This document shows, piece after piece, positions 4,942-53,422 of a stretch of DNA of 64,000 nucleotides. The notes below the pieces were generated by a model, which saw nothing but the letters and a program-made list of their open reading frames with translations, did not search any database and had not been told where the DNA came from. The first letter of the stretch is position 1. Each line of letters begins with the position of its first letter. Origin of the DNA: Actinomycetota bacterium (GTDB lineage: Bacteria; Actinomycetota; UBA4738; HRBIN12); assembly GCA_052388025.1 (NCBI GenBank), contig JBQTIP010000020.1, positions 14,332 to 78,331 on the forward strand, in the 5' to 3' direction. Position numbers and translations under genes: made by a program.

Positions 4942-6183
4942 GTGCTCACAAGCGAGATCGATCTCGCGAATCCCGACGGCTACGTCGAGCGGATCCCATA
5001 CGAGTGGTTCGACTACCTGCGCCAGGAGCAGCCCGTGTACTGGCACGAGGAGCCGACGCCGAACCACGGTTTCTGGGCGGTCACCCGCTACGACGACCTT
5101 GTCGCGGTCCACATGGACTGGCGGACGTACTCCTCGGAGCTCGGCGCCGTATCGCTCGAGGAGCTCGACGAGGAACAGCTCCAGATCCGCAAGACGATGT
5201 TGGAGACCGATCCGCCCCGGCACCGCGAGATGCGCAACGTCTGCAACAAGAAGCTTTCGGCCCGCGCCGTCGGCAGGTACGAGGAGTTCATCCGCGGCGT
5301 GGCCCGAGACGTGCTCGACCGGGCGCTGCCAATGGGCGAGCTCGACTTCGTCCAGGAGATCTCCAGGGAGCTCCCGATCCGGTTCCTCTGCGCGATCCTC
5401 AAGGTGCCCCAGGAGGACGCCACGATGCTGATCGATTGGGGCGACCAGATGATCGGCAACCAGGACCCGGACTTCTCGAGGGCCGTCGTCGACCAGGTGG
5501 ACACGGAGGAGTTTCGCTACCTGCCGTTCCGCTCGCCTGCGGCCCTCGAGGCTTTCGAGTACGCCGACCGCCAGCGCGACCTCCGGCTTGAGGAGCCGAC
5601 CGACGACGTCATCGCCGCGCTCACGGTCGCCCAGTCCGAGGGGATCCTGACCGAGCACGAGTTCCACACGTACTTCACGCTCTTGATGATCGCGGGCAAC
5701 GAGACGACTCGGCACACGATCTCCCACGGGATCCTCGCGCTGATGGAGCACCCCGATCAGATGGAGCGACTGCGGAACGACACTTCGCTCATGCCGACGG
5801 CCGTCGAGGAGATGCTCCGGTGGGCCACGCCTGTCCTGCACTTCCGGCGCACGGCGTCGTGTGACACCGAGCTCCGCGGAACGAAGATCAGGAAGGGCGA
5901 CAAGATCGTCACCTGGTACATCTCGGCGAACCGCGATGAAGCGGTGTTCCCGGGCCCCTACCGGTTCGATATCTCGCGCTCGCCGAACGAGCACGTTACG
6001 TTCGGCCCCGGCGGCCCGCACTTCTGCCTTGGGGCGCACCTCGCGAGGCTCGAGACCCGGATCCTGTTCGAAGAGCTGCTCCCCAGGCTGAAGTCGATCG
6101 AGCTCACCGGACCGGTCCAGCGGATGCGCTCCAACTTCGTGAACGGCATCAAGCATATGCCCGTCAAGGTTCAGCTAGTCTGA
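4942..6183 (+). CDS. Cytochrome P450 monooxygenase
   Basis: Heme loop FGPGGPHFCLGAHLAR, I-helix AGNETT, EEMLRW (ExxR); 413 aa; GTG start with RBS GGAGGAacgac. Confidence 0.9.
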   Translation: MLTSEIDLANPDGYVERIPYEWFDYLRQEQPVYWHEEPTPNHGFWAVTRYDDLVAVHMDWRTYSSELGAVSLEELDEEQLQIRKTMLETDPPRHREMRNVCNKKLSARAVGRYEEFIRGVARDVLDRALPMGELDFVQEISRELPIRFLCAILKVPQEDATMLIDWGDQMIGNQDPDFSRAVVDQVDTEEFRYLPFRSPAALEAFEYADRQRDLRLEEPTDDVIAALTVAQSEGILTEHEFHTYFTLLMIAGNETTRHTISHGILALMEHPDQMERLRNDTSLMPTAVEEMLRWATPVLHFRRTASCDTELRGTKIRKGDKIVTWYISANRDEAVFPGPYRFDISRSPNEHVTFGPGGPHFCLGAHLARLETRILFEELLPRLKSIELTGPVQRMRSNFVNGIKHMPVKVQLV

Positions 6184-6194
6184 ACCAGACTAGC
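6174..6194. terminator. CTAG-rich palindromic hairpin (gCTAGTCTG-aac-CAGACTAGc) overlapping the P450 stop codon; candidate bidirectional terminator between convergent genes
   Basis: 9-bp perfect stem with a 3-nt loop; TGA of the P450 gene at 6181-6183 lies inside the left arm; related copies at 26977-26997 and 52299-52321. Confidence 0.45.
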
Positions 6195-6220: not shown

Positions 6221-7708
6221 TCAGCTCTTAGCAGCCAGACGGTTGCCGACCTCGCGAGAGACGTCGATGAGCGCGAGAACGTCGTCGTCCGTCGTGCGGT
6301 AGTTCACGAAGCACGGGCGCAGGTACACCTTGTCGTCGATCAGCGCCGAGGCGATGTAGACCCGTCCATCCTTCATCAGCTCCTGCGCCAACCGGTGGTT
6401 GTGCGCGTTCAGGTCTTCGACTCCCTCGGGCACGTGTCGGAACGGCACGATCGAGAGCACCGGCGGGCCGAGCGGCTCCAAGTCGTCGTACTGCCGGACC
6501 TCCCGGTACAGCAGCTCCGCCTCGTCGAGGTTCCGCTGGATCGCCGCGCGGAACGCAGGCGCGCCGTGTGCCCGGAACGCAAGCCAGAACTTGAGGGCCC
6601 GGAAGGGCCGCGAGTACTCCAACGTGATATCGACCGCGTGCAGCTCGTGCCGCTGGTGAGGCAGGTACCCCTCCTCGTGCTTGAAGGCGGCCTCGAGCTG
6701 CTCCCGACGCTTGACCAGCACCACGCCGCACGCCTTCGGCAGATACAGCCACTTGTGCGCGTCCACGGAGCACGAGTCGGCCCTCTCGAGCCCGGTGAAC
6801 AGGTGCGCCTTCGACGGGACCGCCGCCGCCGGCAGCCCGTACGCGCCGTCAACGTGGAGCCAGACTCCTCGCTTCTCGCACACTTCGGCGAGCGGTCCGA
6901 TCGGGTCGACCGCTCCGGTCAACGTCGTCCCGGCCGTCGCCACGACGGCGATGGGCACCACCCCCTCCGCCCGGTCCCGGTCGATCGCCTCCGCGACAGC
7001 CTCCGGCCGCACGCCCCGGTCCCGGCCGATCGGCAGCGCCCGAACGTTCGCCGCCCCGATGCCGAGTAGCTCGGCGGCGCGGATGACCGAGTAGTGCACC
7101 TCCTCCGAGCAGTACAGGGCGACGCGCCGGCCCACGAGCCCCTCCGTCCTGCTCCCCGGAAGCGCGTGCTCGCGCGCCGAGGCGAGCACCGTCGTGTTGC
7201 TGACCGTTCCACCGCTGGTGAACGCGCCGCTCCCCGCCGGGAAGCCGATGAACTCGGCCGCCCACCGGACGGCCTGCTGCTCGATCTCCGTCGCCGCGGC
7301 CGCGTAGACCGCGAGGTTCGCGTCATAGCAGGCGGCGAGCGCGTCGGCGATCGCGCCGATCTCCAAGCCCGACGATCCGATGAACGCGAAGTACCGCGGC
7401 CGGGGCTGGGCGATTGTCTCGTCGAGGATCCGGGCGGCGTCCTCGAGAACCTCGAAGACCGGAGCCGGTTCCTCCGGCAGCTCCGTCCGAAGCAGCGCTC
7501 GCACGCGCTCGTCGAGCGGCGGCTCCTCCGGCCGGAAGCGGTCGAAGCTCCGCCAGGCCTGCTCGATCAGCTCCGCCGCGCGGGCGAGCGCCTCTTCCCT
7601 CGGCGCGTCGAGTCGGAGAGGGCGCTCGCCCCAGATCCTGTGCGTGTGTTCCCCGTCCGTGCCCGGCTCAACTCCCCGGCATCGGCGCTGGCCGCGCGAC
7701 CTCCTCAC
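6221..7708 (-). CDS. Group II PLP-dependent amino-acid decarboxylase (aromatic-L-amino-acid / tyrosine / diaminobutyrate decarboxylase family)
   Basis: PLP-lysine motif SVDAHKWLYLPKACG and the GSSG/TSGGT decarboxylase fold pattern. Most likely start is the in-frame GTG at 7708 (about 495 aa), overlapping the upstream permease by 40 nt; the ORF-track start at 7786 is less likely. Confidence 0.8.
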   Translation of the reverse strand: MRRSRGQRRCRGVEPGTDGEHTHRIWGERPLRLDAPREEALARAAELIEQAWRSFDRFRPEEPPLDERVRALLRTELPEEPAPVFEVLEDAARILDETIAQPRPRYFAFIGSSGLEIGAIADALAACYDANLAVYAAAATEIEQQAVRWAAEFIGFPAGSGAFTSGGTVSNTTVLASAREHALPGSRTEGLVGRRVALYCSEEVHYSVIRAAELLGIGAANVRALPIGRDRGVRPEAVAEAIDRDRAEGVVPIAVVATAGTTLTGAVDPIGPLAEVCEKRGVWLHVDGAYGLPAAAVPSKAHLFTGLERADSCSVDAHKWLYLPKACGVVLVKRREQLEAAFKHEEGYLPHQRHELHAVDITLEYSRPFRALKFWLAFRAHGAPAFRAAIQRNLDEAELLYREVRQYDDLEPLGPPVLSIVPFRHVPEGVEDLNAHNHRLAQELMKDGRVYIASALIDDKVYLRPCFVNYRTTDDDVLALIDVSREVGNRLAAKS

Positions 7709-9161
7709 CGGACCCGACCGCGCCGGCCGCCTGGGCGGACAGACGGAACTTGCCCCGGCCGACCAGCGCCAACAGGATGACCACACCGATCACCGCCCAG
7801 CCCAGCAGGAACCAGTACACCGTGTTGAACGGCGAGGGGACCTTGTAGACGCTCGCGAAGATGGCTCCCGCTTGGATGAGGAATCCGACGGCGCCCGCAA
7901 CGACCAAGGAGCCGCTGCTGACCTTGCCCCACAATCCTCTGAAGGCCGCCAGGGCAACCGCCGCATACACCACAGCGAGCGTGAGCCCGCCGTATCCAGC
8001 CTCCCATAGGAATAGCGGGAAGTACTCTGGTCCCCCGCCGGTGTCGAGTACTCCGTGCGCGAGGCGGACCCAGGCGATCTCGGCCACGGCGATCCCCACG
8101 ACCAGCACGATCGACACGACCGGCGTGCCGTAGCGCGGCGAAACCTTCGCCAGCGCGCCCGGGATCCTCCGGTCCCTTGCCAGGGCGAAGATCAGCCGGC
8201 TGGCCGCCACAGACGCGCCGATCCCGACGGCCGCGATATCCAGGAGCAGAATGATGTTCATCAGGTCGAACAGGAAGTTCGATCCGAAGCCGCCATCCGC
8301 GGCCGGAAGCGCCAGGACCAGCACCGGCGCCCCGCTGCCGGCCCACGCCTTCGCGTCGAGCCCGAACCCGATGGCCTCCGCGTACGAGGCCACGAGGAAG
8401 TACACGGTGACGACGGCGATCGACAGGAGCACGGCTCGGGGAACTGTTCGCTTCGGGTTGGGGGTCTCCTCGGAGAGGTTCGCTGCCGACTCGAACCCTA
8501 CGAACAGCAGGATGGCGTAGAGCACGCCGTAGAACATGTTGCCGAAGCCCCCGGCCTCGCCCGGGTTGAAGGGCTCGATGCTGTTCCCGCCGTGTCCGCC
8601 CTTCACGATGATGTAGAGGAGGAAGATCGTGACGACGCTCGCGGAGAAGAGCACGAGCGCGAGCTGCGCGCGGGTCGAGATCCGGACGCCGAAGTACAGG
8701 ACGCAGAACAGGATCCCCGTGTAGACCAGGTCGAGGACCCAGTACGGGATGTTGATGTTGTAGGCCTGGCTCAGGAAGTCGGCCGTGAGCCCGCCGATCA
8801 GGAGCGGGATCGCCACGGCGAGGACGATGAGCCCGCCCGTGTATACCCACCCGAAGACGAACCCCACCCGCTCGCCGACGCCGGCGGTGATGTAGTCGTA
8901 CAACGCCCCGCAGGCGTGGATCCTCTTCGCGTACTCCGCGATGATCCAGCCGAGCGCCGCCACCCCGATGGCTGCGATGAGGATGGCGATGGGAGTGGCT
9001 ACACCCGCGCCCTTCCCGGCGTTGTTGGCGCCCACGACGAGCGACAGCAACAGGATCGCCCCGAACACTGGGCCCATGAACCCCACGGTCTGGGCGACGA
9101 CGTCGATGAACGAGAGTTTCCCTTCGCCCAGCTTCTCGTATTCAACCTGCTCGATGGCCAT
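7668..9161 (-). CDS. APC-family amino-acid/polyamine permease
   Basis: 497 aa with about 12 predicted TM segments and APC signature composition (GxG-rich helices, FGWVYTGG); translationally coupled to the downstream decarboxylase, which is the classic precursor/product antiport operon layout. Confidence 0.85.
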   Translation of the reverse strand: MAIEQVEYEKLGEGKLSFIDVVAQTVGFMGPVFGAILLLSLVVGANNAGKGAGVATPIAILIAAIGVAALGWIIAEYAKRIHACGALYDYITAGVGERVGFVFGWVYTGGLIVLAVAIPLLIGGLTADFLSQAYNINIPYWVLDLVYTGILFCVLYFGVRISTRAQLALVLFSASVVTIFLLYIIVKGGHGGNSIEPFNPGEAGGFGNMFYGVLYAILLFVGFESAANLSEETPNPKRTVPRAVLLSIAVVTVYFLVASYAEAIGFGLDAKAWAGSGAPVLVLALPAADGGFGSNFLFDLMNIILLLDIAAVGIGASVAASRLIFALARDRRIPGALAKVSPRYGTPVVSIVLVVGIAVAEIAWVRLAHGVLDTGGGPEYFPLFLWEAGYGGLTLAVVYAAVALAAFRGLWGKVSSGSLVVAGAVGFLIQAGAIFASVYKVPSPFNTVYWFLLGWAVIGVVILLALVGRGKFRLSAQAAGAVGSGEEVARPAPMPGS

Positions 9162-13537: not shown

Positions 13538-14969
13538 GTGCGCCTCGTGACCCCCGCCGGGCGCTCGCGCTCCACGGCGCCGTCGAAGCGCGTGATCATC
13601 ATCGGAGCCGGCATCGCGGGGCTGGTCGCGGGCTTCGAGCTGCTCCGCCGGGGACACGAGCCGCTCGTCCTGGAGGCGCAGAACCGGGTGGGCGGCCGCA
13701 TCTACACGCTTCGGGACTTCGCGCCCGGGCTGTACGCGGAGGCCGGGGCAATGCGCATCCCGCGCGCGCACGAGCTCACGCTCGAGTACTGCCGGTTGTT
13801 CGGTCTGGAGCTGCGACCGTTCGTGATGGGCAATCCCAAGGGATTGGTCTACGTCGGCGGCGTCCGCATGAGCGCGGAGGAGGCGGATGCGCGCCCGGAG
13901 CGGCTGCCCTTCGCCCTCGCCGAGCACGAGGCCGGCCGCAACGCCGACCACCTGTGGCAGGAGGCCATCGCCGACATCCGCGAGCTGCTGGAGCGGGACG
14001 GCGACGCGGCCTGGGACGAGATCGTCCGGCGCTACGACCAGTACTCGCTGTACGAGTTCCTGAAGGTCAAGGGGTTCTCCGAGGGCGCCATCGAGTACTA
14101 CGCGGTCATGAACTTCGTCGAGGCCGACATGAACAACGCCGTCGTGGAGGTGCTGCGGGAGGACCTGGGAGGCGCATTCGAGGACATGCAGGAGATCGTC
14201 GGCGGCATGGACCGGCTGCCGAACGCCTTCTTCGAGCGCCTCCAGGGCAACGTCCGGCTGGGCGCCCAGGTCCACGCGATCGACCAGGACGAGCGCTCCG
14301 TCACGGTGCACGTGAAGACGGAGGCCTCGCGCTACTCCGTGACCGGGGAATACGCGATCTGCACGCTTCCCTTCCCCGTGCTCCGCTCCGTCGAGACGAT
14401 CGCGCCGTTCTCACGCGAGAAGCAGCGGGCCATCCGGCAGCTCAACTACCCACGCCTCGACGAAGGTTCTGTTCCAGGTCCGCCACCGGAGGTGGGAGAC
14501 CGAGGACGGGATCTTCGGCGGCGCGTCCGTCACCGACCTGCCGATCCGGCGGATGAACTACCCGACGCCCGACCTCACCAACGAGCGCGGGGTGCTTCTC
14601 GCTTCCTACACCTGGGGACAGGATGCGCTCCAGTGGGGTGCGATGGACGACGAGACGCGCCTCGAGGAGGCGCTCGACGACGTGTCGCGGATCCACCCGT
14701 GGATCCGCGAGGAGTACGAGGTGGGGGCATCGCACGCGTGGTACGGGGACCGCTGGGCTCGGGGAGCCTTCGCGCTCTTCGCCCCGGAGCAGCAGACGGC
14801 ACTCCAGGAAGCGATCGTGAAGCCCGAGGGCCGGATCCACTTCGCGGGCGAGCACTGCTCCCTGTACCACGCCTGGATCCATGGGGCGTTGGAATCGGGG
14901 ATCAGGGCGGCTCGAGAGATCCATGAGACCCCACCGGCCCCGGCCCCGATCCGGGCGGAACGACTCTAG
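13538..14969 (+). pseudogene. Flavin-containing amine oxidase (monoamine/putrescine oxidase or L-amino-acid oxidase family), interrupted by a frameshift
   Basis: FAD dinucleotide motif RVIIIGAGIAGLVAGFELLRRGHEPLVLEAQNRVGGRIYT. The frame is lost after ...AIRQLNY at about 14448-14458 (C-rich run); the protein continues in the +1 frame (STKVLFQVRHRRWETEDGIFGGASVTDLPIRRMNYPTP...HFAGEHCSLYHAWIHGALESG), ending with TAG at 14967-14969. Confidence 0.75.
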
Positions 14970-25440: not shown

Positions 25441-26276
25441 TCGACGACCCGCTCGTCCGCTTCCGCCACGTGTACAAGGTCTACCGCGTCGCCGATACCG
25501 GCGTCGTGGCGCTCGGCGGGGTCGACTTCGAGGTCCACCGGAGCGAGTTCCTGGCGGTCGTGGGCCCGAGCGGGTCGGGGAAGTCGACCATCCTGAACAT
25601 GGTTGGCGGCCTCGACCGCCCGACGGCGGGCGTCGTGGAGGTGGACGACCACGACCTGGGACGTCTGAGCGAGGAGGAGCTCACCGTCTACCGACGAGAC
25701 AAGGTCGGGTTCGTGTGGCAGGGCACGGCGCGGAACCTGGTTCCGTACCTGACGGTACGCGGGAACGTGGAGCTGCCGCTCACGGCCAAACAACAGGTCG
25801 GCGTGACCCGCCGCCGACGCTCCGATGAGCTCCTGGAGGTCGTCGGGCTCCGTGACCGGGCGCAACACAGGCCCGGGCAGCTCTCCGGCGGCGAGCAGCA
25901 ACGCGTGGCGGTGGCCGTGGCGCTGGCCAACGTCCCGAAGCTCCTGCTCGCCGACGAGCCCACGGCCGAGCTGGATAGCGAGTCCGCCGAGCTCGTCCTT
26001 TCCGCCTTCCGCGCCGTGAACCGGGAGTTCGGCGTCACGATCGTCATGGTGACGCACGACCTGATCGCCGCTCGCAGCGCCGGCCGTGCCATCCGGCTAC
26101 GCGACGGACGCCTGCTTGCGGAGGGAGTCGCCGTCGAGCCGGTCGGCGACGACGGGCGGCTTCGACTCCCCGAGGAGGCCGTGGAGACGCTCCTCGGCCA
26201 CGACCTCGAGGTGGAGGTCGTAGGTGGGGAGGTCCGCGTCCGGCGCCGGGGCGAGCGGGGGGCGGATCATGGCTGA
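25437..26276 (+). CDS. ABC transporter ATP-binding protein 1
   Basis: Walker A GPSGSGKST, signature LSGGEQQRVAVAVAL, Walker B LLLADEPT, H-loop VTHD. Confidence 0.85.
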   Translation: MIDDPLVRFRHVYKVYRVADTGVVALGGVDFEVHRSEFLAVVGPSGSGKSTILNMVGGLDRPTAGVVEVDDHDLGRLSEEELTVYRRDKVGFVWQGTARNLVPYLTVRGNVELPLTAKQQVGVTRRRRSDELLEVVGLRDRAQHRPGQLSGGEQQRVAVAVALANVPKLLLADEPTAELDSESAELVLSAFRAVNREFGVTIVMVTHDLIAARSAGRAIRLRDGRLLAEGVAVEPVGDDGRLRLPEEAVETLLGHDLEVEVVGGEVRVRRRGERGADHG

Positions 26277-26982
26277 GCCGCTGCTCCAGGCGACGGCCAT
26301 CGTGCGCCGGTACCGAGGCGCTCATGGAGTGACGGCCGTGCGTGGAGCGTCGCTCGAGCTGCATCCCAAGAGCTTCGTCGCGCTCATGGGGCCATCGGGG
26401 TCGGGCAAGACCACCTTCCTCGGGGTGCTGTCCGGCCTCGACCGGCCCGACGCCGGGGAGATCCGCTGGCACGGCCGGCCGATCGGAGACATGTCCTTCC
26501 GGGAAGGGGTCGTCCTTCGCCGGTCCGGCATGGGAATCGTCTTCCAGAGCTTCGGACTGCTTCCCACGCTATCGGCGGTGGAGAACGTGGAGCTGCCGCT
26601 CCGGGTCGCAGGAGCGGACCTCGAAGAGAGCCGCGAGCGGGCGGCCACGTGGCTCACCCGACTCGGGCTCGCCGACCGGCTGGAGAATCGGACCTTCGAG
26701 CTGTCGGCCGGACAGCAGCAGCGCGTGGCCGTGGCCCGTGCGCTGATAACGGAGCCGGAGGTAGTGCTGGCCGACGAGCCGATCGCCGAGGTCGACACCG
26801 AGAACGCGGACCTGATCCTAGACGCGCTCTGGGAGGTCATCCGCCGCGGCGGCGCCGTGCTCGCCGCCACCCACAACCCCGAGGCGCTGCTGTACGCGAA
26901 CCGCGTCGTCCTGTTTCGCGACGGGCAGATAGAGGCCGAGGGAACGCCGGCGGAGCTCGCCTCGCGCGTGACGACCGACTAG
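26269..26982 (+). CDS. ABC transporter ATP-binding protein 2
   Basis: Walker A GPSGSGKTT, signature LSAGQQQRVAVARAL, Walker B VLADEP; ATG at 26269 overlaps the upstream stop by 8 nt. Confidence 0.85.
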   Translation: MAEPLLQATAIVRRYRGAHGVTAVRGASLELHPKSFVALMGPSGSGKTTFLGVLSGLDRPDAGEIRWHGRPIGDMSFREGVVLRRSGMGIVFQSFGLLPTLSAVENVELPLRVAGADLEESRERAATWLTRLGLADRLENRTFELSAGQQQRVAVARALITEPEVVLADEPIAEVDTENADLILDALWEVIRRGGAVLAATHNPEALLYANRVVLFRDGQIEAEGTPAELASRVTTD

Positions 26983-26997
26983 TCCATCCCAGACTAG
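26977..26997. repeat. Degenerate copy of the CTAG palindromic element (gACTAGTCC-atcc-CAGACTAG) overlapping the TAG stop of the ABC ATPase
   Basis: Shares the CAGACTAG right arm with the 6174 and 52299 copies and the ACTAGTCC left box with the 52281 copy; the stem is only 6 bp. Confidence 0.35.
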
Positions 26998-27094: not shown

Positions 27095-27244
27095 TCAGAA
27101 CCGGAGGGACTTCCAGACGTCCTCGCCGCGGTCGCGTAGATCCTCGGCGAAGTCCTCGCGGACTCGCGGGGTGCGGCCGAGCACGCGGTCCATCAGGGAC
27201 CGATGCCCCTTCCGCCGGCCGACCGACCGAGCCACCGCGTCCAT
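27095..27244 (-). CDS. Small hypothetical ORF (49 aa) downstream of the ferredoxin reductase
   Basis: ATG-initiated, basic/acidic mixed composition (MDAVARSVGRRKGHRSLMDRVLGRTPRVREDFAEDLRDRGEDVWKSLRF); weak RBS; no motif. Confidence 0.15.
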   Translation of the reverse strand: MDAVARSVGRRKGHRSLMDRVLGRTPRVREDFAEDLRDRGEDVWKSLRF

Positions 27245-31988: not shown

Positions 31989-32963
31989 ATGTCACGTGTC
32001 CGCCTGTCGACGCCCGCGCCGACCCAGGCCTCGCCCGCCCTCATCTGGGCCGGGCTCGGGACCGTTTACATCGTTTGGGGTACCACTTACCTCGCCATCC
32101 GAGTCGTGAACCAGACGCTCCCACCGCTCCTCACGGCCTCGGTGCGGTTCCTGATCTCGGGCGCGATCCTCTACGCCTGGTCGATCCGGCGCGGCGACCG
32201 CGCCGCCGACCGGCCGGGCCCCAGGCAGTGGCGGGCGGCACTCTTCACCGGCGGCCTCCTGCTACTCGGCGGGAACGGGGGCGTCGTGCTCGCCGAGCGA
32301 TCCATCCCCTCCGGGCTTCAGGCGCTGCTGTTCGCGCTCGTCCCCCTGTGGATGGCGCTGCTCGACCGAGTGTTCGGGAAGCGCCGGCTCAGGTGGACCG
32401 CGGTGTTGGGTCTGGCTGCGGGGTTCGGCGGCGCCGCGCTCCTTCTCGGGGGAGCGGTTCGGGGCCACATCGACCCCGTCGGGCTGGTCTTCGGAACAAG
32501 CGCGTCACTGTGTTGGGCTATCGGCTCCCTCTACTCGCGCCACGCGCCGCTGCCGTCGCGGCCGCTGGTCGGCACCGGCATGCAGATGCTCGCCGGAGGC
32601 GCGCTTATGGGGATCGCCGGCCTCGCGTTCGGTGAGCTGGACGGCATCCACCCCGAGCGGTTCTCGAGGGCATCGCTCCTCGGCTTCGCCTATCTGGTCG
32701 TCGTCGGGTCGTTCGTCGGATTCACGGCGTACCTGTGGCTGCTCCGGAACGCCCGGACGTCGCTGGTCTCGACCTACGCGTTCGTGAACCCGGTCGTGGC
32801 GGTGACGCTCGGTTGGCTGCTCCTCGGCGAAACGATCGGTACTCGAACGATCGTGGGTGGAGGGATCATCGTCGTGTCGGTTGCCCTCATCATCTCGGCC
32901 GGGGAGGTCGTGAGCCCGCCGGACGTCACCTCGGGAGCCGAGGTGCCCAAAGGATCAGGCTGA
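31989..32963 (+). CDS. EamA/DMT-family transporter
   Basis: Two EamA repeats, 10 predicted TM segments; ATG at 31989; sits between gatB and gatA on the opposite strand. Confidence 0.8.
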   Translation: MSRVRLSTPAPTQASPALIWAGLGTVYIVWGTTYLAIRVVNQTLPPLLTASVRFLISGAILYAWSIRRGDRAADRPGPRQWRAALFTGGLLLLGGNGGVVLAERSIPSGLQALLFALVPLWMALLDRVFGKRRLRWTAVLGLAAGFGGAALLLGGAVRGHIDPVGLVFGTSASLCWAIGSLYSRHAPLPSRPLVGTGMQMLAGGALMGIAGLAFGELDGIHPERFSRASLLGFAYLVVVGSFVGFTAYLWLLRNARTSLVSTYAFVNPVVAVTLGWLLLGETIGTRTIVGGGIIVVSVALIISAGEVVSPPDVTSGAEVPKGSG

Positions 32964-32973
32964 GGGCTCGGCC

Positions 32974-34449
32974 TCAGGCGGCGAGATCGTCCAGCAGTGG
33001 CGGCCGCGCCGTGAGCGCCAGCTCCTGTTCGAGCTCATGCGCGGCTCGCAGGATCGTCGGCTCGCCCAGGACCCTCCCCGTGAACTGGAGCCCCACGGGC
33101 AGCCCGGCGTCGTCCAGGCCGCACGGCACGGAGACGGCCGGCACCCCGGCGAGGTTCGCCGGGATCGTGAACACGTCCGATAGGTACATCGCGAGCGGAT
33201 CGTCCGCGCGTTCGCCGATCCGAAACGCGGTCGTCGGCGAGGTGGGCGACACCAGCACGTCGAAGCGCTCGAAGGCCCGCTCGTAGTCGCGGATGATGAG
33301 CGTCCGCACCTTCTGGGCTTGTCCGTAGTAGGCGTCGTAGTAGCCGGCGGAGAGCGCGTAGGTCCCGAGCATGATGCGGCGCTTGACCTCGGGCCCGAAG
33401 CCCTGCCCGCGCGTCCTCATCATCATCTCGACCGAGTCCTTCCCGTCGACCCTCAGGCCGTAACGGACACCGTCGTACTTGGCGAGGTTCGAAGACGCCT
33501 CGGAGGGCGCGATCAGGTAGTACGCGGAGAGCGCGTAGTCGGTGTGAGGCAGCGAGGCCTCCCCGATCTCGGCGCCGAGCCCTGCCAGCCGATCGACGGC
33601 GGCCTGGACGCTCGCCCGCACCCCGGTCTGCACGCCCTCGCCGAACGCCTCCTTCACGACGCCGACCCGTAGACCGGAGACGCCCTCCCCTATCCCTTCG
33701 GAGTAATCGCGCCGCGGCTCGTCGAGGCTCGTCGCGTCCATCGGGTCCTTTCTCGCGATGGCCGACAGCAGCAGCGCCGCGTCGCGGACGCTCCGGGTGA
33801 AGGTGCCCACCGTGTCGAGCGACGAGGCGAACGCGATCAGTCCGTACCGAGAGACGAGCCCGTACGTTGGCTTGAGCCCCACGACCCCACAGAGCGACGC
33901 AGGCTGGCGGACCGAGCCGCCGGTGTCGGTCCCCAGCGCCCAGACCGCTTCGCCGGAAGCCACGGACGCGGCCGAGCCGCCGGAGGAGCCGCCGGGGACG
34001 GCATCGAGGTCCCAGGGGTTGTGCACGGGTCCGAACGCCGAATTCTCGTTCGAGGAGCCCATCGCGAACTCGTCGCAGTTCGTCTTGCCGAGCAGGACCG
34101 ACCCGGACTCGGACAGGCGAGCCCACGGTGTGCAGTCGTACGGCGGCACGTATCGCTCGAGGATCCGTGACCCGCAAGTGGTCCGGATTCCACGAGTCGT
34201 CAGGACGTCCTTCAGGGCGACCGGAATGCCGGCAACCGGCGGGAGCGGCTCGCCGGCGCGCAGCCGTTCGTCGATCGAAGCCGCCTGCTGCCGCGCCGGG
34301 CCGTCGGTCCTCGTGAGGAACGCCTTCACACGGTCGTCGACGGCGTCGATCCGGGCCAGACACGACGCGGTCAGCTCGGCCGACGTGACCTCGCCGGCGC
34401 GCAGCGCTGCCGCGAGGTCGGTGGCGGTCCGGTCGCAGAGCTCGGGCAC
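32974..34449 (-). CDS. gatA: Asp-tRNA(Asn)/Glu-tRNA(Gln) amidotransferase subunit A
   Basis: Amidase signature [14 protein letters not shown] with Ser-cisSer-Lys triad context; 491 aa. Confidence 0.95.
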
Positions 34450-48613: not shown

Positions 48614-48641
48614 GGAAGCCCTCCCGGCCGGGAGGGCTTCC
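48614..48641. terminator. Perfect 28-bp GC-rich palindrome (GGAAGCCCTCCCGG|CCGGGAGGGCTTCC), candidate bidirectional terminator between convergent genes
   Basis: Read directly from the sequence; a second 8-bp-stem hairpin (GAGACCGC...GCGGTCTC) lies at about 48532-48564. Confidence 0.5.
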
Positions 48642-51832: not shown

Positions 51833-52285
51833 ATGCGGGCCGTGAAGCAGGTAACCGGGACCGATGAGGGGATCATCAAGGCCCTACGTTCACAGGGCCT
51901 TCGGATGACGCCGCAGCGACGCGCGATCCTCTCGGAGGTGATGCGGACCAAGGGCCACATCTCTCCCACCGCCCTTGCACGGAAGGTCCAGGGCGAAATG
52001 CCCGGCGTGAACGCCTCCACGATCTACCGGACGCTCTCGATGCTGGAGGACGCCGGGGTCCTCGCGCACGCCCACCTGGAGAGCGGACCCGAGTATCACC
52101 GAACGGAGGAGGCTGGGCACGTCCATCTCACGTGCTCCCGTTGCGGCGCGGAGGACGACCTCTCGCTCACGGAGGCGAAGGCGCTTCAGAGGCTGATCGA
52201 GCGCCACCACGGGTTTCTGCCCGACCTCACGCACTTCGCCATCTCCGGGCTCTGCGCCGACTGCCGGCGTAGGAGCGGAAACTAG
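51833..52285 (+). CDS. Fur-family metalloregulator (probable Zur)
   Basis: RMTPQRRAILSEVMRTKGHISPTAL DNA-binding helix; metal sites HAHLESGPEYH / HVHLTCSRCG / CADC; 150 aa; convergent with the znuACB operon. Confidence 0.85.
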   Translation: MRAVKQVTGTDEGIIKALRSQGLRMTPQRRAILSEVMRTKGHISPTALARKVQGEMPGVNASTIYRTLSMLEDAGVLAHAHLESGPEYHRTEEAGHVHLTCSRCGAEDDLSLTEAKALQRLIERHHGFLPDLTHFAISGLCADCRRRSGN

Positions 52286-52298
52286 TCCGGAGTTTAGA

Positions 52299-52321
52299 CA
52301 CTAGTCTGTCTCAGACTAGTG
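52299..52321. terminator. CTAG palindromic hairpin (CACTAGTCTG-tct-CAGACTAGTG), best-preserved copy of the repeat family, preceded by an ACTAGTCC box on the Fur-family stop codon
   Basis: 10-bp perfect stem with a 3-nt loop between convergent genes; the upstream box aACTAGTCCggagttt (52280-52297) contains the TAG stop of the Fur-family gene. Confidence 0.5.
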
Positions 52322-52335
52322 TAATGGGCGCCCTC

Positions 52336-53361
52336 TCAGACCGGAACCGCCCAGACGCCGTGGGGTCCCGCCCCCACTGTGATCTGGTCCACCCGCCGAC
52401 GAGTCCGCTCGTTGTACACGATCAGCCGGCCGTGGTCATGATCGGCCACGACGGCCCACCGTCCGTCCGCCGTAATCGCGACGTGGTGCGGGGCTCCGGG
52501 GAAGCGAAGGGAGGCGACGACTCGCAGCGTGCGGACGCGGACCACGAAGACGCGCGCCGCCCCGTGGTCGGTGATCCAGGCGAACCGCCCGTCCGGCGTG
52601 AACGCCAGATGGTGAGCCTCGACCCCTAGCTCGATCGACCGCAGCAGCTCACCCTTGGGGGTGGAGAAGACGTGGAGCTCCCCCGCCCAGTCGGTGACCC
52701 ACAGGTTCCCGTCGGGGGCGAACAGGAGGTCGTGCGGTCGCTCGCCCGTCGAGACGTAGCGAACGCGGGCCCGCCGGACGAGGTTCACGACCGCGAGGTC
52801 ATCCCGCCCCTCGAGCGAGACCCACGCCCGCCGGCCCGTGGGATCCACGGCCACGTCGTGAGGGTCAGTAACAAGCGGGATCGTGCGGCGCAGCCTCCCG
52901 TCGAAGCGCACCAGCTGGACACGCGCGGAGCCCTGGTTGGCGACGACGACGAGGTTCCCCGCGATCTTGACATCGTGGGGAGCGCCGCCGAGCTCCACGA
53001 ACTCGACATCTCCATTCCGAACGATCGCGATCCGGTCCGAGGCCCAGAGCGCGACGGCCACCGAGCCGTACCGCGCCACCGTGATGTTGTGGGGGCCGCC
53101 GGGCGTCTCGATTCGTTCGATCACCCGCCCGGCAGCCACGTCCACCTCCGCGACCCGCTCCGCGCCCTCCACAGCGACCCACACCAAGGCGGATAGATCG
53201 GGCCCGGCCTCTGGTGCGGAGGACGGGAGCGCGGACGTCCCGGTCGAGTCCAGCCGGACGGGCTGCGATCCATTCGGCTCCGGCGCGGCCATGCCCGTGG
53301 AGGTGGCGGACGCCACGGCCAGGGCCAGGGCGACCGCGGCGAGCAGTCGGCATGGGCTCAC
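52336..53361 (-). CDS. Secreted YVTN-type beta-propeller repeat protein
   Basis: Signal peptide MSPCRLLAAVALALAVASA, then repeated 40-residue blocks (GxxPHxVAV.. / PDG..W.TD); last gene of the znu operon; start is GTG 53361 (or 53379). Confidence 0.65.
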   Translation of the reverse strand: MSPCRLLAAVALALAVASATSTGMAAPEPNGSQPVRLDSTGTSALPSSAPEAGPDLSALVWVAVEGAERVAEVDVAAGRVIERIETPGGPHNITVARYGSVAVALWASDRIAIVRNGDVEFVELGGAPHDVKIAGNLVVVANQGSARVQLVRFDGRLRRTIPLVTDPHDVAVDPTGRRAWVSLEGRDDLAVVNLVRRARVRYVSTGERPHDLLFAPDGNLWVTDWAGELHVFSTPKGELLRSIELGVEAHHLAFTPDGRFAWITDHGAARVFVVRVRTLRVVASLRFPGAPHHVAITADGRWAVVADHDHGRLIVYNERTRRRVDQITVGAGPHGVWAVPV

Positions 53362-53422
53362 ACCGAAGCTGACTTCCACCGGGACGGCCGGGTTCCCGCG
53401 GGTTGTTGGCTCGCCCGCCCGA

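Follow-up and report, generated by a model that had tools for sequence, protein, structure and literature searches.

Three short inverted repeats with CTAG in their arms lie at gene junctions in a 64,000-nt stretch of DNA from an Actinomycetota bacterium (the window). An earlier note had described them as a genome-specific family of bidirectional terminators or REP/MITE-like repeats that may also carry a protein-binding CTAG core. Do they belong to one family, is this family mobile, and what might it do at the ends of genes?

Three copies of a palindrome in the window

The three hairpins do form a real repeat family. The exact palindrome CTAGTCTG-N3-CAGACTAG occurs twice in the window (copies i and iii; Table 1), and a third site, copy ii, matches 14 of its 16 bases. 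Two or more exact copies were seen in none of 100 dinucleotide shuffles. When up to three mismatches were allowed, the window had three sites, compared with 0.06 expected. The arm CAGACTAG occurred five times against an expectation of 0.48, always within the three sites. The perfect 8-bp arm pair common to copies i and iii, with its 3-nt loop, could be read directly, as described earlier. The tetranucleotide CTAG was indeed three-fold under-represented in the window (33 copies, 94 expected), and 7 of the 33 were in the three sites when the CTAG of the box ACTAGTCC beside copy iii was counted. Near full elements (no more than 80 nt away), a further CTAGTC was seen four times (0.7 expected).

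The box ACTAGTCC, which had been taken as a second shared feature of copies ii and iii, was not significant alone (2 copies compared with 0.59 expected; 11 of 100 shuffles reached 2), and copy ii is best read in the register of CTAGTCTG-N3-CAGACTAG. All three junctions are convergent, as claimed, and each site overlaps or adjoins a stop codon. The further claim, that the upstream stop codon lies inside every element, held for the P450 gene (TGA at 6181) and the ABC ATPase gene (TAG at 26980) but not for the Fur-family gene, whose TAG (52283-52285) belongs to the half-box and lies 15 nt before main hairpin iii, outside the hairpin itself. Small hairpins including stop codons were present at other convergent junctions of the window, too (for example, at 32961-32976).

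Table 1. Copies of the palindrome in the window and their neighbours
Feature	Position	Strand	Remarks
Cytochrome P450 gene	4942-6183	+	Upstream of copy i
P450 TGA stop	6181..6183	+	Left-arm end of copy i and first loop base
Element copy i	6174..6194		g-CTAGTCTG-aac-CAGACTAG-c; perfect core, 9-bp stem, 3-nt loop
PLP-dependent decarboxylase gene	6221..7786	-	Convergent on copy i; stop 27 nt away
ABC-transporter ATPase gene	26224-26982	+	Upstream of copy ii
ABC ATPase TAG stop	26980..26982	+	Within left arm of copy ii
Element copy ii, degenerate	26979..26997		CTAGTCCA-tcc-CAGACTAG; 14/16 matches
Conserved 49-aa ORF	27095..27244	-	Convergent on copy ii
Fur-family gene	about 51833-52285	+	Upstream of copy iii
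Half-box ACTAGTCC	52281..52288	+	Holds TAG stop (52283-52285) of Fur-family gene
Element copy iii	52298..52322 (core 52301-52319)		aca-CTAGTCTG-tct-CAGACTAG-tgt; perfect core, 11-bp stem
YncE-like beta-propeller gene	52336..53379	-	Convergent, end of znuBCA cluster; stop 16 nt from copy iii core

Copy i was predicted to fold as RNA with -19 to -20 kcal/mol on either strand (51-nt context; z about -3 to -4). In L065, the P450 ortholog lacks the element at this end; it stops with TAG at an identical codon position. In copy ii the changed positions are 7-8, adjoining the loop, and the perfect stem is only 6 bp. Its orthologs in close relatives, whose loops and flanks differ, are near the consensus: CTAGTCTC..CAGACTAG in L203, CTAGTCCG..CAGACTAG in L202, and CTAGTCCG..CAGATTAG in L199-201. 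The TAG stop of the 49-aa ORF in L203 is the right arm of the element. A ferredoxin reductase gene lies beyond this ORF at site ii. The orthologous site in L194-L197 carries copy iii as well, its loop being tgt there and its flanks different, and the half-box beside it is conserved as GCTAGTCCGG. Both the YncE-like gene and the element of copy iii are absent from the syntenic L198.

Distribution across genomes

The family reaches far beyond the window: a scan of species-representative genomes gave at least 113 matches to the palindrome. Among the matches listed, 94 were copies in high-GC Actinomycetota metagenome-assembled genomes (MAGs) whose spacer is exactly 3 nt; they represent 58 independent loci, and their MAGs, about 40, are at species level. 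With the window included, perfect copies number 96, again among the matches listed; spacers of 2 and 4 nt were seen in these matches at 3 and 1 high-GC loci, respectively. The family is not genome-specific, contrary to the earlier assumption: the same 16 bases recur in all these MAGs. Judged from these sequences, the bearers are a lineage of uncultured high-GC soil Actinomycetota comprising dozens of species.

The best-sampled MAG had about 12 perfect copies (at least 12) over five contigs. Copies with one to three mismatches were almost lacking in 1.5 Mb, and isolated arms were nearly absent (2 in 772 kb). Viral contigs had no matches to the element. Rfam searches, at the gathering threshold and permissive, returned no family for it, and a literature search with its 8- and 9-mers returned primers and constructs only.

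Sequence and stem of the element

The element is a 19-base palindrome with 16 fixed bases, CTAGTCTG-NNN-CAGACTAG, and a loop of free sequence. Conservation stops at about 19-25 nt, and the flanks of the copies are unrelated (flank logos). The stem has 50% GC in a 70% GC genome, and the hairpin is predicted to fold on both strands.

The core is often lengthened by 1-4 variable, complementary pairs, and these extensions covary. With one representative per locus (58 loci), flank pairs at offset 2 were complementary in 26 of 58 cases, compared with 16.9 expected from column composition (p = 0.006). At the metG site, for example, the extensions vary yet pair: GAA/TTC, CGAA/TTCG, CAA/TTG, CA/TG, CTA/TAG, and GCCA/TGGC. 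In one-directional contexts, sense-strand G.U and A.C were seen 14 and 7 times, respectively, too few to decide on pairing at the RNA level. No compensatory changes were found in the 8 core pairs, whose two innermost positions are the soft ones. It is the sequence of the core, and not just its structure, that is constrained, which fits the earlier suggestion of a recognised CTAG core.

The flanks show a slight enrichment of A before the stem and of T after it (T at +1, 55%; at +2, 36%). A U-tract or A-tract of useful length was not found beside the stem, and a terminator scan detected no terminator at site i. A canonical intrinsic terminator, that is, a GC-rich hairpin followed by a U-tract, was rejected for lack of the U-tract.

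Placement at gene ends

The element is bound to gene 3' ends. Crude gene calls gave 24 convergent, 17 tandem and 2 divergent sites. Relaxed calls gave 29 convergent, 22 tandem and no divergent sites, and 18 more had a 3' end on one side only; the palindrome is thus linked to gene ends well beyond the window, as had been supposed for its three sites. When positions were tabulated against stop codons, 41 gene ends used the TAG of the element and 7 the TGA formed by arm and loop, and most others stopped 0-20 nt before the element. For several gene pairs, both stops were within the two arms, so that the element is the whole intergenic region.

We considered this stop overlap as a sign of a role linked to translation and rejected it. 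Outside the three sites, 7-8 of 26 CTAGs in the window also serve as stops (by tally), and therefore 41 TAG-stop uses among 192 CTAGs do not stand out. The overlap is probably a matter of where an element with TAG can be accommodated in a compact genome.

The neighbours of the element belong to 135 unrelated families; they share no theme of function, and no regulator gene recurs among them. The gap between the element and the -10 box of metG varies from 13 to 70 nt.

Conservation between species and lack of mobility

Many of the 58 loci are orthologous between species: the element lies upstream of metG in 15 species, at the 3' end of parB in 4, within purB in 5, and within an acs-like gene (acetoacetyl-CoA-synthetase-like) in 3. 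In an unbiased sample anchored on MetG, pairwise identity was 0.88 in the arms, 0.32-0.33 in the flanks and 0.29 in the loop. The copies within coding sequence (purB and the acs-like gene) are spelled with the rare codons CTA and AGA. These comparisons show purifying selection, acting across species, on the 16 bases and on the spacing of 3 nt. On the MetG tree, element-bearing taxa are on the deepest branches with the losses nested among them, and the orthologous positions predate about 30% MetG divergence. Clades without the metG-upstream copy have no replacement hairpin there; a terminator is therefore not required at this place.

Comparison of sites with and without the element gave no sign of insertion. 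The P450 ends of the window and L065 are equal in length, and between the copy in the acs-like gene and L064 there are substitutions but no other differences. No target-site duplications were found at the copies. A transposase was neither a recurrent neighbour at the 58 loci nor present among the 25 of 135 neighbour families listed or in the window. With orthologous positions, no target-site duplications, no transposase among the neighbours listed and no viral hits, a MITE or REP specific to this genome does not describe the element, and the sequences argue firmly that it is not mobile. The REP/MITE-like character suggested in the earlier note is thus contradicted, also by the low number of copies (about 12 perfect ones in the best-sampled MAG). 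A MITE or other insertion was rejected on the further ground that there is no body beyond the 19-25-nt hairpin and that filled and empty sites differ by in-place substitution.

Other readings were rejected as well. A DNA uptake sequence would require the isolated arms that are lacking here. For parS, the ParB-bound site of the TGTTTCACGTGAAACA type, the sequence is unrelated, and these very loci have canonical parS-like sites of their own beside metG and parB, apart from the element. A classical operator of a regulon was rejected because of the 0-2 sites in divergent regions, the varying distance to the metG -10 box and the unrelated functions of the neighbours. A marker of cassette borders, considered for the YncE-like gene in the window and for GSDH in L202, was rejected because no second copy or remnant was found on the far side of these genes.

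Possible functions

Letter-for-letter conservation at gene ends across species implies, as we infer, a factor that reads the sequence. By descent the palindrome is ancient and vertically inherited. Our tentative interpretation, held with somewhat less than even confidence, is a cis-element that acts as a sequence-read, bidirectional, factor-dependent gene-end signal, TRIT-like in kind (see below). Its likeliest function would be factor-dependent, bidirectional formation of transcript ends, with a duplex DNA-binding site as the main rival. The element lies at the downstream gene boundary, most often as the whole spacer between two convergent genes. Transcription from either direction would then place the same hairpin, with 8-12 bp and a 3-nt loop, at the mRNA end. 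A putative lineage-specific factor would recognise this hairpin by its sequence and set the 3' end of the transcript through termination, processing or protection from exonucleases. RNA as the active form, a protein as the reader and 3'-end formation as the outcome are the proposed parts of this interpretation.

Several observations speak against this explanation: no U-tract follows the stem, the inner copies in purB and the acs-like gene would be harmful if termination were efficient, clades that lost the metG-upstream copy carry no hairpin in its place, and no candidate for the factor was found. The missing U-tract and the maintenance of copies within essential coding sequence also weigh against a constitutive intrinsic terminator of the simple kind.

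The strict 3-nt spacing, the two-fold symmetry and the lack of core compensation fit recognition of duplex DNA by a dimer equally well. A duplex-DNA site for a dimeric, sequence-specific protein, be it a roadblock, an insulator or a chromosome-organising factor, is rather unlikely in our estimate. The bias to gene ends would result from harmful binding in promoters and within genes, and from the fit of a both-strand TAG to places where two genes end. Such a site could account for a palindrome of perfect two-fold symmetry whose spacer is fixed at 3 nt and whose centre is free, for 16 core bases conserved without compensatory variants, and for the soft positions beside the centre. The small number of perfect copies in a genome (about 12) and the conservation of their positions resemble a set of binding sites, and loss from whole clades without replacement looks as if a trans factor had been lost. 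The intragenic copies in purB and the acs-like gene are tolerated and conserved. In E. coli, a PurR operator inside purB acts as a roadblock. On the other hand, a duplex site does not lead us to expect covarying stem extensions outside the conserved core. The scarcity of divergent-region sites (0-2) and the variable metG -10 distance (13 to 70 nt) do not suit a classical operator, the neighbours show neither a functional theme nor a recurrent regulator, and parS is excluded by the canonical copies present separately.

A REP/REPIN-like or selfish palindrome, spread, perhaps once, by a hairpin-recognising transposase such as RAYT and persisting at harmless gene ends, is quite improbable. REPs have the tetranucleotide GTAG at the stem base, and the short palindrome here has a conserved CTAG at that place. 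The extragenic 3'-end location, especially between convergent genes, and the existence of degenerate, decaying copies also resemble REPs, and REPIN-RAYT systems are described as vertically inherited and long-lived. Against this, copies are few with few variants and stand as single hairpins instead of REP doublets, and one identical master sequence is shared by about 40 species among the matches listed; its orthologous positions are older than a MetG divergence of about 30%. Empty and filled sites differ by in-place substitution with no indel or duplication, no transposase was found among neighbours of the 58 loci or in the window, and viral contigs had no matches.

Ordinary factor-independent terminator or stabiliser hairpins, alike by descent or convergence and without meaning in the sequence itself, are highly improbable: predicted stable hairpins at gene ends and the stop-including small hairpins at other convergent junctions of the window (such as 32961-32976) would agree with them, but compensatory drift would be expected where 16 bases are instead identical at 58 unrelated loci, across species with randomised flanks, rare codons keep the element inside genes, and there is no U-tract.

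The interpretation as a factor-dependent gene-end signal can be extended to a more specific picture, which we regard as unlikely. A lineage poor in U-tract terminators may use addressed punctuation, in which a putative dedicated protein would read CTAGTCTG-N3-CAGACTAG as an RNA hairpin or a DNA roadblock, stop or trim transcripts both ways at chosen boundaries, and attenuate purB and the acetoacetyl-CoA-synthetase-like gene from inside, with site and factor gained and lost together. The sharp definition (16 fixed bases and a 3-nt loop), the orthologous conservation and the clade losses make the problem tractable, and phylogenetic profiling of element-bearing and element-free genomes should point to the reading factor. 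In MAGs from the lineage, the element is also of practical use as a marker of true gene ends and of several small ORFs that lack annotation.

Comparison with known systems

Like canonical bidirectional intrinsic terminators, the element is a symmetric hairpin between convergent genes with a slight enrichment of A before and T after it. Unlike them, it is without a useful U- or A-tract, its stem has 50% GC, and its sequence itself is conserved. Mycobacterial RNA polymerase needs a U-tract for intrinsic termination (PMC3993855).

The likeness to the REPs and REPINs of Enterobacteria and Pseudomonas is that of a short extragenic palindrome at gene 3' ends, often convergent ones; the base of the stem has a conserved tetranucleotide in both, and inheritance can be vertical. 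REPs occur in hundreds per genome, in variant clouds, and are species-specific, often doublets, and RAYT-linked. The element is few-copy, identical across about 40 species among the matches listed, at orthologous positions and in single hairpins, with no transposase found among its neighbours or in the window.

Inverted pairs of the Neisseria DUS and the Haemophilus USS act as terminators, and there are thousands of these uptake sequences, most of them standing alone. The element resembles such pairs in being a fixed, lineage-wide oligomer that is inverted around a short loop directly downstream of genes; it differs in that its isolated arms are nearly absent (2 in 772 kb).

The closest comparison is with TRIT (Tuberculosis Rho-independent terminator) of Mycobacterium, which is palindromic, bidirectional and sequence-conserved (Gardner et al. 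2011, RNIE paper, PMC3152330). TRITs are placed narrowly around -8 of the stop codon, a dsRNA-binding factor was proposed by the authors, and the motif was reported as restricted to Mycobacterium (PMC3152330). For some mRNAs of M. tuberculosis, defined 3' ends coincide with TRITs. M. tuberculosis Term-seq shows little overlap of TRITs with mapped 3' ends, and therefore TRIT itself is not a proven terminator. The element shares with TRIT a palindromic, bidirectional form, conservation of sequence and structure, dispersal at gene termini of a high-GC actinobacterial lineage, and a very narrow distribution of positions that overlaps the stop codon. It differs in its hosts (uncultured soil Actinomycetota), in copy number (about 12 perfect copies per MAG compared with 147), in its shorter length (19-25 nt) and in its strict 3-nt loop. 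We treat it as an analogue of TRIT and not as a member, likened to it by the description of TRIT and not by sequence. Canonical terminators are scarce in high-GC Actinomycetota, where TRIT was the one sequence-conserved candidate; the element would be a second, independent case of a sequence-conserved gene end. If the proposed function is true and TRIT is alike, the two would point to a way of ending transcripts that is general in actinobacteria, depends on a factor and on a specific sequence, and differs from both Rho and intrinsic termination.

Copies within the window

Direct reading of the sequence agreed with the three elements described in an earlier note on this DNA, CTAG-rich palindromic hairpins whose 19-mer core consists of two 8-nt arms and a 3-nt loop (sites i, ii and iii). 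Copies i and iii share the same 8+3+8 core, and the stem of copy iii is lengthened by three extra pairs, aca/tgt. Copy ii lies in the same register and matches at 14 of the 16 core bases, both changed bases adjoining the loop. The recurrence was indeed beyond chance: the exact pattern occurs twice in the window, and none of 100 dinucleotide shuffles gave two copies. With up to three mismatches allowed, only sites i, ii and iii matched in the window (0.06 expected), and the arm CAGACTAG was found five times (0.48 expected), always inside these sites. The shorter box ACTAGTCC by itself had a window count without significance. CTAG falls three-fold short of expectation in the window (33 observed, 94 expected). 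These statistics support a genuine repeat family.

All three sites lie at convergent junctions and have stop codons where the earlier note placed them, the Fur TAG being that of the half-box before copy iii. The neighbours by Pfam are cytochrome P450 and PLP decarboxylase at site i, two ABC ATPases and a ferredoxin reductase at site ii, and, at site iii, a Fur-family regulator that converges on a YncE-like propeller gene and znuBCA. The closest convergent partner of site ii is a conserved 49-aa ORF with no Pfam family on record; its orthologue in one related locus, L203, terminates on the right-arm TAG of the element. The surroundings are ordinary chromosome (ligA, gatB, mnmA, ETF, methylmalonyl-CoA mutase and similar genes). 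The 48 called genes of the window stop with TGA (31), TAG (17) or TAA (0), and two of the 17 TAG stops, those at sites ii and iii, are in a CTAGTCC context.

Three other places in the window deserve mention. Two convergent genes overlap by 4 bp and take their stop codons from one CTAG; the plus-strand ORF of the pair matches the amine-oxidase family only over its C-terminal quarter (profile 327-442 of 443) and is perhaps a fragment, or its start may have been miscalled. A small hairpin of like architecture and unrelated sequence holds the TGA stops of both genes within its arms at the convergent junction of an EamA-type transporter (+) and an amidase (-). A spacerless perfect 14+14 palindrome is intergenic, with two minus-strand genes either side.

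Coordinates of the features (window positions, unless an L-number names a comparison locus outside the window)
Feature	Position	Sequence or context
Copy i	6174-6194	g-CTAGTCTG-aac-CAGACTAG-c
Copy ii	26979-26997	CTAGTCCA-tcc-CAGACTAG
Copy iii, core	52301-52319	core as in copy i
Copy iii, extended stem	52298-52322	
P450 stop	6181-6183	TGA, inside left arm of copy i
ABC ATPase stop	26980-26982	TAG, inside left arm of copy ii
Fur stop	52283-52285	TAG, in half-box 15 nt ahead of copy iii
49-aa ORF, unannotated	27095-27244	minus strand; MDAVARSVGRRKGHRSLMDRVLGRTPRVREDFAEDLRDRGEDVWKSLRF
Its orthologues	L199 3746-3895; L203 1402-1551; L202 4893-5036	>90% identity
YncE-like beta-propeller gene	52336-53379; L194 10435-11445	between Fur-family gene and znuB
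Fur-znuB junction	L198 10447-10457	genes 10 nt apart
parS-like site after metG	L114 2641-2656; L116 11622-11637; L049 183-198	TGTTTCACGTGAAGCT
Canonical parS near parB	L015 4495; L020 3202	TGTTTCACGTGAAACA/G
Single CTAG	14966-14969	
ORF ending on it	14553-14969	plus strand
Unrelated hairpin	32961-32976	CTGAGG-gctcgg-CCTCAG
14+14 palindrome	48614-48641	GGAAGCCCTCCCGG/CCGGGAGGGCTTCC
Gemmatimonadota sites	L003 7307-7324; L004 2740-2757	CTAGTCTGACCAGACTAG

Distribution and inheritance

Scanning one genome per species for CTAGTCTG-N(2-5)-CAGACTAG gave at least 113 loci. Among the matches listed, 98 were of high GC content (0.62-0.75) and, with few exceptions, bore the label uncultured Actinomycetota or Actinomycetes, their spacer being 3 nt (94), 2 nt (3) or 4 nt (1); the low-GC loci carried other spacers than 3 nt and look like chance matches. 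About 40 MAGs are represented among these matches, so that the element is not genome-specific, contrary to what the earlier note had supposed. In the best-sampled MAG, perfect copies number at least 12 on five contigs, about one in every 100-400 kb. The arms also turn up with 2 nt between them in two Gemmatimonadota MAGs, perhaps by chance, perhaps as a related element of another phylum.

The loop varies freely apart from an avoidance of C as its first base. Copies do not resemble one another in their flanks, which rejects a place within a longer repeat; arms hardly ever occur alone, which rejects an uptake-type oligomer; and no locus among the matches listed has a second copy. The repeated unit is thus the 19-mer palindrome alone.

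The 96 perfect copies of the matches listed and the window represent 58 independent loci, many of them orthologous across species. Such sites lie between rsmI (or a HerA-like ATPase gene) and metG (15 species), at the 3' end of parB (4 species), and at the 3' ends of P-type ATPase and M23 peptidase genes. Others lie inside purB (peptide LVCARL = CTA GTC TGY GCC AGA CTA G; 5 species) and inside an acetoacetyl-CoA-synthetase-like gene (encoding LV[WC]NRL; 3 species), both using codons very rare at 70% GC.

In an unbiased sample of 80 metagenome loci retrieved via MetG alone, the region upstream of metG had 10 perfect copies and 6 degenerate ones (1-3 mismatches each, uncompensated), and 63 loci were without the element. 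In the MetG tree, taxa with the element are found on the deepest branches and on many later ones, and element-free clades are nested within these, so the site is ancestral and was lost several times. The recognisable copies had a pairwise identity of 0.88 over their arms, against 0.32-0.33 over the flanks and 0.29 over the loop. Element-free orthologues differ by in-place substitution, not insertion.

Copy iii and its half-box are kept in four close relatives with different loop and flanks; a more distant syntenic contig, L198, lacks both, and also the YncE-like gene, which close relatives have between the Fur-family gene and znuB just as the window does. Five relatives have a near-consensus copy ii, changed every time at positions 7-8, and in L202 a GSDH gene adjoins it. 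The gene content flanking the element is thus variable (YncE-like gene, GSDH).

The element is not parS, since canonical parS-like sites occur separately, adjoining metG and parB. The one past metG, about 45 nt after the stop, is kept across the lineage (three loci in the table and 25 or more further related ones). Together with canonical parS near parB, it places metG, probably, within the origin-proximal region of ParB loading.

Placement relative to genes

Crude GC3-based gene calling placed the matches listed at 24 convergent, 17 tandem, 2 divergent and 10 intragenic positions, the rest unclassified. Relaxed calling gave 29 convergent, 22 tandem and 0 divergent positions, and 18 with a one-sided 3' end, in agreement with the enrichment at gene ends that the earlier note had proposed to check. 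Under relaxed calling, among these matches, the element's TAG is the stop codon of 41 gene ends and a TGA formed by arm and loop that of seven; the remaining ends mostly have their stop 0-20 nt ahead of the element. In several gene pairs both stops are in the two arms, so that the element is the entire spacer. In tandem contexts it is close to the upstream stop and at a variable distance from the downstream promoter; upstream of metG, 13 to ~70 nt separate it from a conserved -10-like TAnnnT box.

By our own count, generic CTAGs in the window are stop codons about as often as those of the element, and stop overlap was therefore rejected as evidence for a translational role. The robust positional signals are a bias towards 3' ends and an avoidance of divergent regions.

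Sequence and structure

Both the sequence and the structure of the element appear to be constrained. No compensatory variants were found in the eight core pairs in copies compared across loci; thus base identity matters. Just past the core, pairs in the 58 loci of the matches listed and the window are complementary beyond the expectation from column composition (at offset 2, 26 of 58 versus 16.9 expected, p = 0.006). The extensions at the metG site are paired though their sequence differs (GAA/TTC, CGAA/TTCG, CAA/TTG, CA/TG, CTA/TAG, GCCA/TGGC), a covariation that points to a folded single strand. On the sense strand of one-directional contexts, G.U (14) exceeds A.C (7), which hints at RNA-level pairing and is not decisive. 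No substitute hairpin was found at element-free metG loci.

Possible function

What fits best, we infer, is a hairpin that a putative lineage-specific factor would read by its sequence, such reading defining transcript ends. We prefer this because of the fixed sequence, the fixed 3-nt loop and the covarying stem extensions, the strict tie, in both orientations, to the 3' ends of genes, and vertical inheritance with clade-wide loss. In the main rival, a DNA-binding protein would recognise the duplex as a dimer and serve as a roadblock, an insulator or an architectural factor; this would account better for copies within genes and for the symmetry being perfect, but worse for the covarying extensions.

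An origin of the REP/RAYT type is possible, though the support for it is poor. Among the matches listed, the neighbours of the 58 loci fall into 135 unrelated, mostly housekeeping, families; no transposase or regulator recurs beside these loci, and the 25 families listed include no transposase; Rfam has no family matching the element, and viral contigs have no copies. A plain structure-only terminator is unlikely; no U-tract follows the stem, and the terminator scan gave none at site i. Of the earlier interpretation, the tie to gene ends, the bidirectionality and, probably, reading by a protein stand; genome specificity does not, nor does the MITE/REP-like character, given unrelated flanks, in-place substitution and the lack of transposases among the neighbours listed.

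The factor-read hairpin may be compared with the "Tuberculosis Rho-independent terminator" (TRIT) motif of Mycobacterium, whose 147 copies, palindromic, bidirectional and conserved in sequence, centre on about -8 of stop codons (Gardner et al. 2011, PMC3152330). TRITs are where some M. tuberculosis mRNAs end, and in a later Term-seq study they overlap little with mapped 3' ends. Likened by description, TRIT is the closest described system, of which the element would be an analogue.
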